A stretch of DNA of 45,491 nucleotides from Escherichia phage fEg-Eco06: sequence record PQ141284.1, one strand, 5' to 3'. The notes below the pieces were generated by a model. That model had not been told where the DNA came from. It made no database searches and saw only the letters and a list, made by a program, of their open reading frames with translations. Positions 2,524 through 40,792 of the stretch are shown in pieces (the first letter of the stretch is position 1; the number at the start of each line of letters is the position of its first letter). The position numbers and the translations under genes are program-made.

Positions 2524-2986
2524 TGGGTTGCATTTCACCGCTGCGTTTGAGGGGTTCCGAGGTACTGCGTATCGTGCTACGCCGAACGAGAAGTACCTGA
2601 CTATCGGCTACGGTCACTACGGGCCAGACGTAACACCAGGTAAGACCATCACCCCGGGGCAAGGACTCCTGTTACTGAATCGCGACATGGCTAAGGCCGT
2701 AGCTGCGGTTGACGCAGCAGCACACCATTCATTAACACAGGCTCAGTTCGATGCGGTGTGTGACCTGGTATATAACGCTGGCGCCGGCGTGATTGCGGCT
2801 GCTACTGGTACAGGTAAGGCACTGCGTTCTGGTGATATCGAGACGCTGCGGGCTAAGCTGGCGCTGTTCATCAACCAGAACGGCAGACCACTACTCGGCC
2901 TGCGTCGCCGTACAGCAGGTCGCCTGGCGCTGTTCGACGGTAAACCGTGGCAAGAGGCTGAGGCTATTGGGAGAGCCGTTAAATGA
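2486..2986 (+). CDS. endolysin, T4-lysozyme-like (GH24) muramidase
   Basis: HFTAAFEGFRGTAYRATPNEKYLTIGYGH matches the GH24 catalytic-Glu region (E-G-x-x-x-x-A-Y...T-I-G-Y-G-H). An alternative GTG start at 2501 lies behind GGAGGA. Confidence 0.85.
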   Translation: MEDISVSRNISDNGLHFTAAFEGFRGTAYRATPNEKYLTIGYGHYGPDVTPGKTITPGQGLLLLNRDMAKAVAAVDAAAHHSLTQAQFDAVCDLVYNAGAGVIAAATGTGKALRSGDIETLRAKLALFINQNGRPLLGLRRRTAGRLALFDGKPWQEAEAIGRAVK

Positions 2987-3113
2987 TGGACGAATACGAA
3001 GGCATTTAGTAAAATTACTTCCACGCTGCTTGTGCTTGCATACTAAGCCCTGGTAAACCTGAAGCAGCAGCCCAAGCGGTGGAGACTGCGTAGGGTTCAG
3101 GGGCTTATGACCG

Positions 3114-8860: not shown

Positions 8861-10831
8861 ATGCTATTAACTTTAGTACCACAGGGTTTAACTATGAGCT
8901 TACTTACATCCCTCATCAGCCATCAGATATGGCTGCAACGCACCGCATCCGGTGAGGTGAAAGACCTCACACCGTTCATTCAGGAGATGCGGGATGAAAT
9001 TAAACGGCAGGTGCTGTTATTCGGTGACGACGGTCGTAGCACTGCGCGACTGAATAAATTGTTACGCGACCTTGAGGAAGCACTAACCGGACTTACGGGC
9101 GACTGGCAGACAAAGCTGACAGAAGACCTTAAGGAACTGGCGGCGTATGAGGCCGAGTGGAACGTAAAGACTCTGACCGCCAACGTTAACGCGGAATTTG
9201 TTACCCCTACCGCGGAACAGGTGTGGGCCGCTGCCGAGTTTCAGCCATTATCGTTGAGTGACAAGCCCGTTGATTTCACTAAGCTGATGGACGGCTGGGG
9301 TGAAACAGAAGTCGCGCGCCTGGTAACCGGCGTTAAGATGGGCTTTGTACAAGGCCAAACCACACGGCAGATTGTTAAGAACGTCGTAGGCGCTGGCGGA
9401 CTGGCGGACATCTCTGAGCGTAACGCGGCCACCGTAATCCGTACTGCACTGTCTCACGTATCCAACGAAGCACGTAACGAGACGTACCGCCAGAACGACG
9501 ACATCATCGAGAAATATGAGTGGGTGTCTACGCTGGACAGCCGTACCAGTACAACGTGTTTCACGGCTGAAACAGAATTAGCGCCCATCGCGGGGATGGA
9601 CGCGGTAATGCGCGGACTCTATTCAGGAAAAATCTTTACCATCGAACTTTCCAACGGCGAGAAGTTCAGTGGCACCCCGAAACACCCTGTACTCACGCAA
9701 TACGGATGGACTCCGCTTGATGAACTCGATCCAACTAAGCATGTCTTGTATACCACTGTTGACAAAGTGACTGTGCTCGAAACAGTGAAGAACATAAACA
9801 TGCCAGCCAGAGCGGATTATATTTTTAATACGCTCGCTGATTTCCCCATCAGGAAAATGGTAAGCACGAGTCCCGCGGCAACAGATTTCTATGGCGATGG
9901 AGTGGGACTCAATGGCAAAATCGACATTGTACGGGCCGATTGCAAACTGCGGAACTACGTCCACGCCAGCGGAATTAAACAATTCAAAAGCGAGGGTTTC
10001 AGTCTTATTCATAGCGCCGCTTTGCTGTCGGACGATAGCTCTGGCGATTTTCTCCTCCGGGGTGAATGTCCTGTGAGTGTGCCCGCGCTTAGCGAGGCCA
10101 AGTGTTTTGACCATAGAATAGAAAACTGTTTTGCTTACTTGGGTCCTTCTTATGCACTCAATAGGCGGGACGCCGGACTCGAACAATTCTATAGCCCTTT
10201 TTTGATTCAAAATGGTGTCGTTAGAAACCCAACCACGGGGTCGATCATGCATGAGTCCGAGCTTCTTGAGAAATGTTGTTACCGTGGTGGTAGTGACGCC
10301 GTAATTCTTGGCTATGATGCTGGCGGGAGTGCCATCTCGGTACAAAGAACAAATATCATCCGCATAAGCGTCGAGTTTAGAACGTGCCATGTTTATACCC
10401 TCTCTAGTAGTCAAGGATATTATACAGCAGGTAGTGCGATAGTCAAGAATTGCAGGGCCAGAGACGGGATGGCGTGGGAAATCGGTAAAGGTCCGATGCC
10501 CCCCGCCCATCCGAACTGTCGAAGTACCACTGCACCTGTAATCAGTTCGGAGTTCGACTTCCTGGATAAAGGCGCAAAACGCGCGGCTAAGGGTGCAGAA
10601 GGCGGCACTCAGGTAAGCGCAGACACCACATATTACGAGTTCCTGAAACAACAGCCCGCATGGTTTCAGGACCAGGCGCTCGGCCCGGTGCGAGGTAAGA
10701 TTTTCCGTAACAGCGGTATATCGCCGGAAGAGTTTCGCGTAATATCTGTAGATGGTTTCGGGAATCCGCTCACGCTTAAGCAGATGGCGGAACTCGATAA
10801 ACGTGTTGCTGATTATCTGAAAGGGGGATAA
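8861..10831 (+). CDS. head morphogenesis protein (Mu F / SPP1 gp7-like), intein-containing precursor
   Basis: 656-aa ORF. The extein halves join as ...EWVSTLDSRTSTT / CRARDGMAWEIGKGPMPPAHPNCRST, the Mu-F-type C-terminal motif. The predicted spliced product is 358 aa. An alternative start is ATG 8894. Confidence 0.75.
   Translation: MLLTLVPQGLTMSLLTSLISHQIWLQRTASGEVKDLTPFIQEMRDEIKRQVLLFGDDGRSTARLNKLLRDLEEALTGLTGDWQTKLTEDLKELAAYEAEWNVKTLTANVNAEFVTPTAEQVWAAAEFQPLSLSDKPVDFTKLMDGWGETEVARLVTGVKMGFVQGQTTRQIVKNVVGAGGLADISERNAATVIRTALSHVSNEARNETYRQNDDIIEKYEWVSTLDSRTSTTCFTAETELAPIAGMDAVMRGLYSGKIFTIELSNGEKFSGTPKHPVLTQYGWTPLDELDPTKHVLYTTVDKVTVLETVKNINMPARADYIFNTLADFPIRKMVSTSPAATDFYGDGVGLNGKIDIVRADCKLRNYVHASGIKQFKSEGFSLIHSAALLSDDSSGDFLLRGECPVSVPALSEAKCFDHRIENCFAYLGPSYALNRRDAGLEQFYSPFLIQNGVVRNPTTGSIMHESELLEKCCYRGGSDAVILGYDAGGSAISVQRTNIIRISVEFRTCHVYTLSSSQGYYTAGSAIVKNCRARDGMAWEIGKGPMPPAHPNCRSTTAPVISSEFDFLDKGAKRAAKGAEGGTQVSADTTYYEFLKQQPAWFQDQALGPVRGKIFRNSGISPEEFRVISVDGFGNPLTLKQMAELDKRVADYLKGG
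9623..10390 (-). CDS. putative homing endonuclease (two HTH motifs plus Vsr/DUF559-like PD-(D/E)XK domain) encoded antisense within the intein
   Basis: 255 aa from ATG 10390 (MARSKLDAYADD...). SD AGAGAGGG lies 7 nt upstream. HTH-like segments are GTPASIIAKNYGVTTTTVTTFLKKLGL and GVPPIECIRRTQVSKTVFYSMVKTLGL. The nuclease-like core is ETLAFELF...QFAIGPYNVDFAI..HSIAIEI...SGWHVYVL. Confidence 0.65.
   Translation of the reverse strand: MARSKLDAYADDICSLYRDGTPASIIAKNYGVTTTTVTTFLKKLGLMHDRPRGWVSNDTILNQKRAIELFESGVPPIECIRRTQVSKTVFYSMVKTLGLAKRGHTHRTFTPEEKIARAIVRQQSGAMNKTETLAFELFNSAGVDVVPQFAIGPYNVDFAIESHSIAIEICCRGTRAYHFPDGEISERIKNIIRSGWHVYVLHCFEHSHFVNSGIQDMLSWIEFIKRSPSVLREYRVFRGATELLAVGKFDGKDFS
10419..10446 (-). 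promoter_or_regulatory. near-consensus sigma70 promoter for the antisense endonuclease gene
   Basis: On the minus strand: TTGACT (10446-10441), 16-nt spacer, TATAAT (10424-10419). This lies 28 nt upstream of ATG 10390 and inside the intein C-terminal splicing-block codons. Confidence 0.65.
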
Positions 10832-12396: not shown

Positions 12397-12478
12397 TTGC
12401 CTTGCATGTTGGAATAATTTATTCTTGACATGTAAATCCGGGTGGCCCGGATTCCAACGTCCAGGGGACATACTGACT

Positions 12479-13183
12479 ATGAATCGTTTTTTACGTTATC
12501 CGTTCCAGGAAGAAGCTGGAGCAGAAGATAAAGCTGGTGGCGGTGACGCTCCTAAAATGTTCACCGCTGAAGAAGTTCAGGCGCTGATTGAGAAAGAAGT
12601 TGCCGGGCTTAAGGCCAATCAGGAAGCATTGCTGGCGGAGAAGAAAGAAGCCGCCCGTAAAGCAAAAGAGGCCGAAGAAGAACGGCAGCGTGCGCACCAG
12701 GAGGCGTTAAAGGCCGCCGGTAAGATGGACGAGTTTGAAAAGACGATTCGTAGCCAGTATGACCCGGTGTTAGCCGAGAAAGATGGCCGCATCTCCAAAA
12801 TGGCAGAGCGCATCCTCGGCAGCGAACGTAAAGCGGTGCTAGGCTCTTTCGCGGGTGACTTTATTACCCCGGAAGCAGTGGACATCCTTGCGCCGTTCGT
12901 TAAGACTGAGTTCGAAGGTGATGATGTGGTTACTAAGTTTGTCGGCGCAGACGGTAACGTAATCACGACTGACCCGGAACAGTTCCGCAAATACCTGCGA
13001 GAGCACAAAGCGTTTTCGCATTTGATTAAAGCAAATGCAGCTTCCGGCGGCGGGGCTTCCGGTAGCAAAGGCGGCGGGGCCGCACCAGCGTTTAAAGACA
13101 TGAGTGAAGCAGAGCGTATCGCTCTGTACGAATCGAACCCTGCCGAATTTGAACGGCAACTTAAAGCCCTGAGGAAAAAATAA
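12479..13183 (+). CDS. head scaffolding protein
   Basis: Highly charged, Ala/Glu/Lys-rich helical protein directly upstream of the major capsid gene. ATG 12479 is preferred to the track TTG 12425. Confidence 0.65.
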   Translation: MNRFLRYPFQEEAGAEDKAGGGDAPKMFTAEEVQALIEKEVAGLKANQEALLAEKKEAARKAKEAEEERQRAHQEALKAAGKMDEFEKTIRSQYDPVLAEKDGRISKMAERILGSERKAVLGSFAGDFITPEAVDILAPFVKTEFEGDDVVTKFVGADGNVITTDPEQFRKYLREHKAFSHLIKANAASGGGASGSKGGGAAPAFKDMSEAERIALYESNPAEFERQLKALRKK

Positions 13184-14232
13184 TGGCAATTACTACTATC
13201 GGCGATATCGTAACTGGTAAAGAATCGGTTATTCTGTCTTACATGACAGAGGACCCGGTAGAAAAAACTGCGTTCTTCCAGTCTGGTATCCTTACCCCGA
13301 CTCCGTACGCCGCTGCTATCGCTAACGGCCCGTCTAACAAAGCGGTCCTGCCGTACTGGAAAGCTATTGATACCTCTATCGAGCCGAACTACTCGAACGA
13401 CGTATATCAGGACGTCGCTACCCCGCGTAACGTGCAGACCGGCGAGATGAACGTTCGCGTAGCTTACCTGAACGAAGGTTTTGGCCAGGCAGACTTGACG
13501 GTAGAACTTACCAGCCAGAACCCGCTGCAATCTGTAGCGTCCCGTCTGGATAACTTCTGGCAGCGCCAGGCACAACGCCGTCTGATTGCTACCGCGCTCG
13601 GCCTGTACAATGACAACGTAGCGGCTACCGATGCATACCACGAGCAGAATGACATGGTGATCGACGTTTCCGCTACTATGGGCTTCGACTCCGGTGCGTT
13701 CATCGACGCTACCCAGACTATGGGTGACGCGCTGATGGGTAACGGCGGTGAAGTGCTGGGGGCTATCGCGATGCACAGCTTCGTTTATGCGCAGGCTCGT
13801 AAGCAGCAGCTTATCGACTTCATCCGTGATGCTGACAACAACACCATGTTCGCCACCTACCAGGGCTACCGCGTGATTGTTGACGACAGCATGACCGTAG
13901 TCGGCACTGGCCCGACCCGTAAGTTCATCTCCATCATCTTCGGCAACGGCGCTATCGGTTACGGTGAAGGTTCTCCGTCCAACCCGCTGGAATACGAGCG
14001 CGAAGCGTCCCGCGGCAACGGCGGCGGCGTTGAAACCCTGTGGACCCGTAAGACCTGGTTGCTACATCCGTTTGGTTACAGCTTCACCAGTGCAGTAATC
14101 ACTGGCAACGGCACCGAGACTACCCCGCGCTCTGCTTCCTGGCAGGACCTGGCGAACGCCTCCAACTGGAACCGTGTGGTTGACCGCAAGCACGTACCGA
14201 TTGCCTTCCTGGTAACTGGTGTCGGTGCTTAA
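13183..14232 (+). CDS. major capsid protein
   Basis: 349 aa. Follows the scaffold with a TAATG overlap and is followed by a strong terminator. Called from synteny and size. Confidence 0.8.
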   Translation: MAITTIGDIVTGKESVILSYMTEDPVEKTAFFQSGILTPTPYAAAIANGPSNKAVLPYWKAIDTSIEPNYSNDVYQDVATPRNVQTGEMNVRVAYLNEGFGQADLTVELTSQNPLQSVASRLDNFWQRQAQRRLIATALGLYNDNVAATDAYHEQNDMVIDVSATMGFDSGAFIDATQTMGDALMGNGGEVLGAIAMHSFVYAQARKQQLIDFIRDADNNTMFATYQGYRVIVDDSMTVVGTGPTRKFISIIFGNGAIGYGEGSPSNPLEYEREASRGNGGGVETLWTRKTWLLHPFGYSFTSAVITGNGTETTPRSASWQDLANASNWNRVVDRKHVPIAFLVTGVGA

Positions 14233-40763: not shown

Positions 40764-40792
40764 ACTATAATAGCGAACTATTCACATGTCAA
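40764..40792 (-). promoter_or_regulatory. promoter, TTGACA-N17-TATAGT family
   Basis: On the minus strand: TTGACA (40792-40787), 17 nt, TATAGT (40769-40764). Confidence 0.6.

Follow-up and report, generated by a model that had tools for sequence, protein, structure and literature searches.

Full inteins with anti-sense VSR-like homing endonucleases (HENs) were described by Gosselin, Arsenault & Gogarten (bioRxiv 10.1101/2025.01.02.630785), whose supplementary table lists the inteins in the MuF-like minor capsid genes of Vivi2, Fosterous, Affeca and Angelicage as 'VSR -1 ORF'. Their survey was of PhagesDB actinobacteriophages only, and the main text gives no promoters, start codons or selection test for the antisense open reading frame (ORF). 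The element considered here lies in Escherichia phage fEg-Eco06 (PQ141284.1), a Kagunavirus-like E. coli siphophage; the whole stretch of 45,491 nt is called the window, and positions are those of this stretch. Its MuF head-morphogenesis gene carries an intein, and within the intein, on the opposite strand, lies a second gene. It is likely, in our judgement, that this is a mobile class-1 intein of a coliphage MuF gene whose homing endonuclease is a separate gene of 255 codons in the codon-aligned (-1) frame of the opposite strand, with no endonuclease domain in the splicing frame. An earlier note, made from the sequence alone, knew of no described intein of this kind; since homologous MuF inteins are listed by Gosselin et al., the architecture is already published, and the window element belongs to a recently described, rare kind and forms no new category.

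The window element and the Gordonia 'VSR -1 ORF' inteins have in common a contiguous class-1 intein in a MuF-like gene, an opposite-strand Vsr-like ORF in the -1 frame and an unstructured sense interior. The antisense proteins are homologous, the four Gordonia loci of the published list being ones that the search made here recovered as well: tblastn with the window protein reached Vivi2, Fosterous and Affeca with E values of 4e-10 to 7e-12 (Vivi2, 7e-12, 24-27% identity). The differences concern the host (an E. coli Kagunavirus instead of an actinobacteriophage), the insertion point, which in the window (TSTT|CRARD, the bar marking the junction) is about 20 codons upstream of the Gordonia one (HEVIN|CRC), and a near-consensus sigma-70 promoter, which the Gordonia copies lack.

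Other described systems are related in part. I-Bth0305I is the prototype of the 'EDxHD' Vsr-like homing endonucleases (Taylor et al. 2011, PMC3239194; PDB 3r3p); it is encoded by a group I intron on the sense strand, whereas the window protein is encoded antisense in an intein and has Arg175 where I-Bth0305I has His213. In the so-called fractured genes, a free-standing Vsr-like or other endonuclease gene is situated between the halves of a split intein (Dassa et al. 2009, PMC2677866). As in the window, an intein-interrupted phage gene contains a complete endonuclease gene of the Vsr-like superfamily, equipped with expression signals; there, however, the host frame is broken, and the halves are made separately, trans-splice and both keep the orientation of the parent gene, while in the window nothing breaks the host frame, and the endonuclease gene runs antisense over it in matching triplets. 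Fractured genes support a model of intein invasion by free-standing endonuclease genes. LAGLIDADG HENs encoded anti-sense or out of frame within inteins have been known for longer (Gorbalenya 1998; Gogarten 2002), and for a cyanobacterial DnaX intein dN/dS was reported to depend on the frame, with low values for the endonuclease and high ones for the intein (Phillips et al., bioRxiv 10.64898/2026.09.14.751524). In the DnaX intein, as in the anti-sense LAGLIDADG inteins found in minor capsid genes of actinophages, the endonuclease likewise lies outside the splicing frame, but it is of the LAGLIDADG and not the Vsr-like type, the DnaX ORF is described as lying in the +2 frame, and the host genes differ. 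Papers on Guernseyvirinae (Snoke, PMC6776784; UPWr_S1-5, PMC8425127; vKMB36, PMC11162368) mention only 'a large intein' in the capsid morphogenesis gene and no antisense gene.

The coordinates proposed in the earlier note for the intein and the minus-strand ORF, the codon alignment of the two frames and the promoter and Shine-Dalgarno (SD) signals were all confirmed (Table 1). The two frames use the same triplets, so that positions 10388-10390 read CAT (His) on the plus strand and ATG on the minus strand. The open minus frame extends upstream of this ATG as far as a TTG at 10651; ATG 10390 was taken as the start because it is conserved in the relatives. As had been predicted, the gene avoids the codons TTA, CTA and TCA, whose complements are stops in the opposite frame: none occurs among its 255 codons, where 6.4 are expected from 11 long ORFs of the window (P ~0.0015).

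The antisense product is a genuine, selected protein, with two helix-turn-helix (HTH) units followed by a Vsr/I-Bth0305I-like nuclease domain. The earlier note had read it as a real protein with two HTH-like units and a Vsr/DUF559-type PD-(D/E)XK-like nuclease core, and hidden Markov model (HMM) searches, AlphaFold2 (AF2) modelling and Foldseek bore this out. Searched singly, the window protein gave weak Pfam matches to HTH_7 (1.6e-4) and REase_MTES_1575 and recovered only 3 proteins from the database; for the sense intein, 5.8 billion protein clusters yielded just two partial relatives. Profile searches were needed, since ORFs nested in this way seldom get called and sensitivity is limited by the word index. 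The family profile was therefore made from the window protein and eight relatives and retrieved 51 proteins; the alignment with the window protein has 51 rows in all. In this family HTH_7 is matched by 46 of 51 members (best 5.5e-12), MTES_1575 by 13 (3.7e-15) and DUF559 by 9. Against PDB the profile matched 3r3p, the catalytic domain of I-Bth0305I (1.4e-5), the tandem-HTH structure 2lvs (1.4e-7) and the DUF559-like 3hrl. The AF2 model (mean predicted local distance difference test score, pLDDT, 88.5) consists of two three-helix HTH units and an alpha/beta nuclease core, and Foldseek ranked 3r3p first for it. The Vsr-type nuclease fold is thus present and complete, and so are the N-terminal tandem HTH DNA-binding repeats, as found in the I-Bth0305I family. 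The antisense protein of the Aaphi23 type reached I-Bth0305I itself (Bacillus phage 0305phi8-36 ORF029) by tblastn, with 27% identity over residues 157-249 and an E value of 7e-4, which gives a direct sequence link beside the structural one.

The catalytic residues allow the class assignment to be made only in part. E131, D157 and E168 are invariant in all 51 members; in the EDxHD alignment E131 and the metal-binding D157 take the first two positions, and the invariant acidic E168 takes that of the 'x'. The earlier designation as a Vsr/DUF559-type nuclease needs one correction, as the canonical general-base His of EDxHD is lacking and Arg175 aligns in its place; His178, three residues further on, is located in a variable loop. 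The protein seems best described as Vsr-like rather than as a proven EDxHD member, and its chemistry may differ from that of the prototype.

Substitution patterns in relatives show that the minus-strand gene is the selected one. Between Salmonella phage sam and SaI_NFG_5577, 184 interior codons show 55, 9 and 25 differences at sense positions 1, 2 and 3; omega is 0.95 in the sense and 0.17 in the antisense frame, and amino acid identity is 68% and 84%, respectively. In the 20 codons of the C-terminal splicing region of the same pair all 5 differences are at sense position 3. The interiors of the Gordonia elements of Fosterous and Vivi2 gave omega values of 0.66 (sense) and 0.30 (antisense), and their exteins the reverse (sense 0.03-0.11, antisense 1.9-3.2). 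When each frame of 10 loci was aligned separately, the antisense alignment of the interior scored higher than the sense one in 45/45 locus pairs (mean 199 vs 79), and the sense alignment scored higher in 45/45 pairs for the N-terminal splicing domain (110 vs 39); the flip can also be followed column by column. In the clade of the window itself, the metagenomic contigs L014 and L015, which share its insertion site, are 49% and 42% identical to it in the antisense interior and 30% and 33% in the sense interior. These results support the proposal, already in the earlier note, that the sense interior is an unconstrained shadow of the antisense gene.

The same arrangement recurs over a wide range of phages. 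With the window antisense protein, tblastn retrieved 75 phage records, all under MuF/head-morphogenesis genes, from Gordonia, Aggregatibacter/Haemophilus (Aaphi23), Idiomarinaceae, Vibrio and Salmonella Jerseyvirus phages among others; 106 cultured phage records, including Salmonella, Klebsiella, Edwardsiella, Vibrio and Aggregatibacter phages, were found by tblastn with an Aaphi23-type protein. All inspected loci have the match in antisense to MuF and codon-aligned, with an open frame of 272-351 codons, even at a GC content of 42-43%. TTA, CTA and TCA sense codons are absent inside the antisense ORFs of six divergent loci (0/1658) and present in the rest of the host genes (75/2749; Fisher 4e-16). 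A scan of IMG/VR gave 310 matching stretches, from which 79 loci with a GC content of 35-74% were kept; all were fetched by their similarity to the antisense protein, and in 79/79 the host-strand frame is codon-aligned, open across the whole match and translates into a sequence matching the intein profile, the inteins being at Cys codons of MuF.

The host gene, an ORF of 656 aa at 8861..10831 (+), is a MuF/head-morphogenesis protein (Pfam Phage_Mu_F 8e-9; phrog_241 2.6e-147), and this segment has 98.8% identity to its counterpart in BEU35. The reading frame is unbroken across the intein, as in all relatives examined. The intein has the splicing residues C1, T40-P-K-H43 of block B, the C-terminal N298 and a +1 Cys; the penultimate residue is Lys297 instead of the usual His. 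The family sense profile matches solved HINT domains (PI-MtuI/RecA 1.5e-7, DnaB, PI-PkoII, RadA), and 7/8 members of the intein family match Pfam Intein_splicing, the window intein alone doing so at 1.8e-4, under the gathering score. Because the splicing residues are conserved and carriers of the intein (window, BEU35, KMB36) are viable isolates, the window intein is expected to splice.

Searched singly and as a profile against Pfam and PDB, the sense interior gave no LAGLIDADG, HNH or GIY-YIG match, in line with the earlier note; the only matches were to Intein_splicing/HINT, at the N-terminal end (positions 9-83 in the PDB profile search). In the sense frame the interior is a mere linker of ~210 codons which need only stay free of stops, and about 45 codons of the N-terminal splicing domain are truly dual-coding; this region also holds the antisense-protein strands E233-238 and E242-248 of the AF2 model. 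An AF2 model of the sense intein showed the interior as coil with a pLDDT near 20; it was dropped as proof of an unfolded interior, being poor throughout (pLDDT 31, 3 sequences) and hence uninformative.

Table 1. Features of the MuF locus of the window, in order of position.
Feature	Position	Strand	Description
N-extein of MuF-like head-morphogenesis gene	8861..9556	+	ends ...TLDSRTSTT; Phage_Mu_F, phrog_241; aligned to intein-less BEU33, 590B and Bas71 alleles
Near-identical tract, mobile unit plus short co-conversion flanks	9530..10467		window vs KMB36: 2 differences inside, ~11% divergence outside
Class-1 intein, 298 aa	9557..10450	+	Cys1 to Asn298 (Asn codon 10448-10450), then +1 Cys; in-frame presence/absence against intein-less Kagunavirus alleles
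N-terminal splicing domain, blocks A and B	9557..9760	+	from 9626 on also encodes the endonuclease C-terminal tail in antisense
Terminator-like hairpin, weak, tentative	9581..9603	-	20 nt past the antisense stop; consensus scan; such sites no commoner than in shuffles
Antisense (putative homing) endonuclease gene, 255 codons + stop	9623..10390	-	codon-aligned with the intein frame; ATG 10390-10388, stop 9625-9623; MARSKLD...KDFS
Vsr-like nuclease domain (residues ~129-248)	9647..10006	-	family-invariant E131 (10000-9998), Q148, D157 (9922-9920), E168 (9889-9887)
Intein interior, sense-frame linker	9761..10387	+	no family or structure match; sense omega 0.66-0.95 in relatives
Two helix-turn-helix units (residues 5-43, 57-96)	10103..10378	-	AF2 helices; Pfam HTH_7; profile match 2lvs
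C-terminal splicing blocks F and G, HVYTLSSSQGYYTAGSAIVKN	10388..10450	+	same codons spell antisense ATG and predicted SD, -10 and -35
Predicted Shine-Dalgarno sequence AGAGAGGG	10398..10405	-	7 nt ahead of ATG; GAG = antisense of block F Leu codon CTC
Predicted sigma-70-type promoter TTGACT-16-TATAAT	10419..10446	-	-35 10446-10441, -10 10424-10419; 11/12 match
MuF C-extein	10451..10831	+	begins CRARDGMAWEIGKGPMPPAHPNCRSTT...

The predicted promoter, the SD sequence and the ATG of the antisense gene are written into the antisense of the block F and G codons and of those at the splice junction, and are conserved across the family, so that the earlier proposal of a promoter built into the C-terminal splicing codons could be extended to relatives. 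In the window the -35 hexamer is the antisense of the V-K codons by the C-terminal splice junction and the -10 that of the Y-Y codons of block G. Only three sigma-70 matches of at least 11/12 occur in the whole window on both strands (0.62 in shuffles). Among 44 non-identical upstream regions 22 have a match of at least 10/12, as opposed to 0.7% of control windows, and ten of the 22 contain a perfect TTGACA-18-TATAAT; in a wider set, with 25 loci at or above 10/12, the -10 of 22 ends exactly 28 nt ahead of the ATG. The family -35 mirrors V-S-N, the last codons ahead of the splice junction, as GTG TCA AAC read in reverse as TTGACA, the penultimate Ser being TCA in 15/29 loci against a background of 16%. 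In the clade of the window V-K-N is written GTC AAG AAT, giving TTGACT with a 16-nt spacer, and the same element is found in the same place in L014 and L015. The -10 mirrors D-Y or Y-Y of block G, the pair being GAT-TAT in 13/19 loci (21% expected). The block F Leu is CTC in 36/39 non-identical loci with a GC content below 0.60, compared with 9% of the Leu codons in the N-exteins, and at almost every locus the antisense ATG mirrors the His codon of block F. These statistics ignore shared ancestry, although synonymous sites close by (Asn AAT/AAC, Cys TGC/TGT) do vary across these loci. The high-GC, Gordonia-like copies are without the sigma-70 pattern.

A strong promoter goes with a penultimate residue other than His (23/29 vs 1/8 loci, Fisher 0.001, GC below 0.60). 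It may even be, and we put this forward tentatively as somewhat short of an even chance, that the endonuclease gene is a self-contained early transcription unit whose control elements were selected within the codons of the catalytic C-terminus of the intein, the need for a promoter having pushed the penultimate His towards Ser or Lys. If so, splicing chemistry, transcription initiation and translation initiation would constrain the same ~60 nucleotides; for such a threefold constraint, no report was found in the literature for any intein.

The distribution of the intein among close relatives points to mobility. In four coliphages (the window, BEU35, KMB36 and Ec1-ASingh) it is 99.6-99.9% identical in nucleotide sequence, with exteins of 87-100% identity, and BEU33, 590B, Bas71 and most of the 182 matching records are without it. 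The comparison of alleles called for in the earlier note showed a precise in-frame absence in 590B and Bas71, which read TS(A/T)I|CR where intein-plus alleles have TSTT|(298 aa)|CR, and near-identical inteins within diverged exteins; the junction of the intein-less MuF gene in BEU33 or Bas71 lies around ...AGTACGATT|TGCAGGGCC... The near-identical tract of Table 1 ends 27 nt before and 17 nt after the intein. Three of the four intein polymorphisms are synonymous in the antisense and nonsynonymous in the sense frame. This pattern looks like the classic footprint of recent homing with short co-conversion tracts.

Two pairs of records add detail. The N-exteins of the window and BEU35 are identical, one intein base differs (10349), and from 18 nt past the intein (10468 on) identity is 94%; this drop indicates a recombination breakpoint at the 3' flank of the intein, as expected if homing shuffles flanking markers. 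BEU33 and BEU35 have exteins that are 100% identical (0 differences in 1033 nt) and differ by a block of 897 nt (window 9553..10449), i.e., the intein plus one Thr codon, whereas the other intein-less alleles retain a codon at that Thr position (TSTI|C or TSAI|C). For BEU33 this suggests a loss of the intein that was very recent and not quite precise, or else an assembly issue, both records being flagged UNVERIFIED.

The following course of events would account for the observations. Host RNA polymerase would start minus-strand transcription near 10412, independently of late plus-strand transcription. The protein would bind and cut intein-less MuF alleles of a co-infecting phage near the TS(x)x|CRARD codons, and recombinational repair would then copy the intein together with its gene, the co-conversion tracts being very short. 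The 656-aa precursor, made late in infection, would be translated through the shadow linker, and the HINT domain would splice the intein out, leaving the head gene unharmed. The element probably originated when a free-standing opposite-strand endonuclease gene beside MuF was joined to an intein, or by the reverse route.

A free-standing relative is encoded in Acinetobacter phage BUCT629 (MZ712044, QZI85355; L100 2001..2894 +), with 32.5% identity to the Aaphi23-type protein over the full length. Its gene is on the strand opposite to MuF, convergent with it, overlaps the MuF stop codon and ends ~50 nt from the CKC codons, the counterpart of the common intein insertion site. Unlike the window, BUCT629 has no intein, the strand opposite to the homologue is full of stops, and MuF is short (237 aa) and uninterrupted. 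This gene could be an ancestor of the intein arrangement or an escapee from it. The idea that the antisense C-terminal tail is purely a mirror of block B was set aside, since the BUCT629 homologue keeps the tail without an opposing intein.

Several points weigh against the interpretation of the antisense gene as the homing endonuclease of this intein. The omega tests come from the sister clades in Salmonella and Gordonia, the own clade contributing identity comparisons and four polymorphisms, and the codon-choice and promoter statistics ignore shared ancestry. The promoter, SD and terminator are sequence predictions, the poor sense model offers no independent sign of an unfolded interior, and the near-identity of the inteins could in principle stem from ordinary recombination and not from endonuclease-driven homing. 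The catalytic activity or mechanism of the protein is uncertain as judged from its residues: the general-base His213 of I-Bth0305I aligns with Arg175, a position held by Arg in 33 and by His in 13 of the 51 members, and the last Asp of EDxHD has no clear counterpart, F204/E205 being found in the window and Asp in 30/51 members. These residues lend weight to the view that the protein is real and selected but no longer mobilises the intein, or never did; it could instead regulate by binding DNA, act as an altered enzyme such as a nicking one, or cut another site and use the intein only as a safe harbour. Within the protein the two HTH units score best, and the BUCT629 homologue adjoining an intein-less MuF gene demonstrates that it can persist without an intein. 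Such a role nevertheless appears unlikely, given the invariance of E131, D157 and E168 together with the completeness of the Vsr-like fold, the confinement of the 79 IMG/VR homologues to inteins at MuF Cys codons, and the occurrence of the Arg175 variant precisely in the near-identical coliphage intein, whose exteins diverge by up to 13% and whose identity stops within 18-28 nt of the intein ends, as homing here predicts.

Two further explanations deny the antisense gene its primary status, and both are very improbable. According to one, the minus-strand ORF is an unexpressed chance shadow kept open by codon bias, its similarity to relatives mirroring the conservation of the sense intein; aligned shadow frames of 250-480 codons without a coding signal do occur elsewhere in the window, and the antisense C-terminal REYRVFRG mirrors TPKHPVLT of intein block B. 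This explanation is already contradicted: it is the antisense frame alone that matches independent Pfam and PDB families of free-standing proteins, the AF2 model of its product is confident, antisense omega is 0.17-0.30 where the sense frame is near neutral and the exteins, serving as controls, behave in the opposite manner, and both the separate alignments and the missing stop-generating codons, in genomes of 42-43% GC as well, favour the antisense frame. The other supposes a canonical intein with a divergent in-frame endonuclease or other domain, to which the antisense ORF is secondary. A recurring sense motif, (D/N)FHGD..DGE(I/V)E(I/V)V, speaks for it; this motif, however, mirrors the antisense nuclease core YN(L/V)DFA..VAVE(V/L), which is common to DUF559/Vsr proteins, and an in-frame domain is hard to reconcile with a sense omega of ~0.95, with profile and Pfam matches confined to HINT and Intein_splicing, or with the two partial relatives found for the sense intein. 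A separate, antisense homing endonuclease is retained as the preferred interpretation.

The length of the antisense frame was rejected as evidence for a gene. Opposite the genes for the head scaffold (phrog_206, 12425..13183) and the major head protein (phrog_247, 13165..14232), the codon-aligned minus-strand frame stays open for 480 codons (12619..14061). Neither Pfam nor PHROG gave a match for this frame; it seems to be a chance shadow ORF, useful as a negative control and as an example of a gene-caller trap. As length is not significant alone, the significance of the antisense gene rests on homology, selection and comparative data.

Compared with what has been published, new elements here are the wide presence of the family in phages of Gram-negative hosts (the 106 cultured records and 310 IMG/VR matches), the second MuF insertion site TSTT|CRARD, ~20 codons upstream of the common HPN|CRC, the quantitative strand-specific selection, the embedded promoter, SD and start codon as predicted, and the free-standing relative in BUCT629. 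The comparative data reveal a large and old family, more than a curiosity of a few actinophages, with an unusually dense overlap of splicing, transcription and translation signals. How homing endonucleases entered inteins is an old open question, and the best intermediates at hand are elements whose endonuclease still has a gene of its own. The window element, being that of a coliphage growing on E. coli and having a predicted host-type promoter, offers a tractable model in E. coli for the colonisation of inteins by endonuclease genes, and near-isogenic intein-plus and intein-minus phages exist in BEU35 and BEU33. Because the frames share triplets, a single sense-synonymous change of a Leu or Ser codon to TTA, CTA or TCA kills the antisense gene and leaves the head protein untouched; homing, splicing and dual-coding constraints are thereby separately testable.

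Depending on the phage, one or the other of two Cys codons of MuF, ~20 residues apart, is occupied by one of two related elements. Salmonella phage vB_StyS-sam (L003 2399..3208 +) and its sister Jerseyviruses L012 and L013 have a related intein and antisense gene at AHPN|CRSTT and nothing at TSAV|CRARD. The sam record leaves the antisense gene unannotated and gives two hypothetical coding sequences in the intein region, of which the one checked, 2685..3086 (+), lies in another frame. Annotated phage genomes mostly list the MuF gene only, and annotation systematically misses the family because gene callers skip any ORF that lies antisense and wholly inside a longer gene. Contigs of ~1 kb are the source of nearly all database proteins of the family (P0001-P0051); on these the antisense ORF was called because the partial MuF gene is not callable there. 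On the longer metagenome contigs L008 and L010 the antisense ORF alone was called because the MuF gene runs past the contig end. The other two 11/12 promoters of the window, at 40792 and 37870 (-), have the form TTGACA-17-TATAGT and are presumably phage early promoters.

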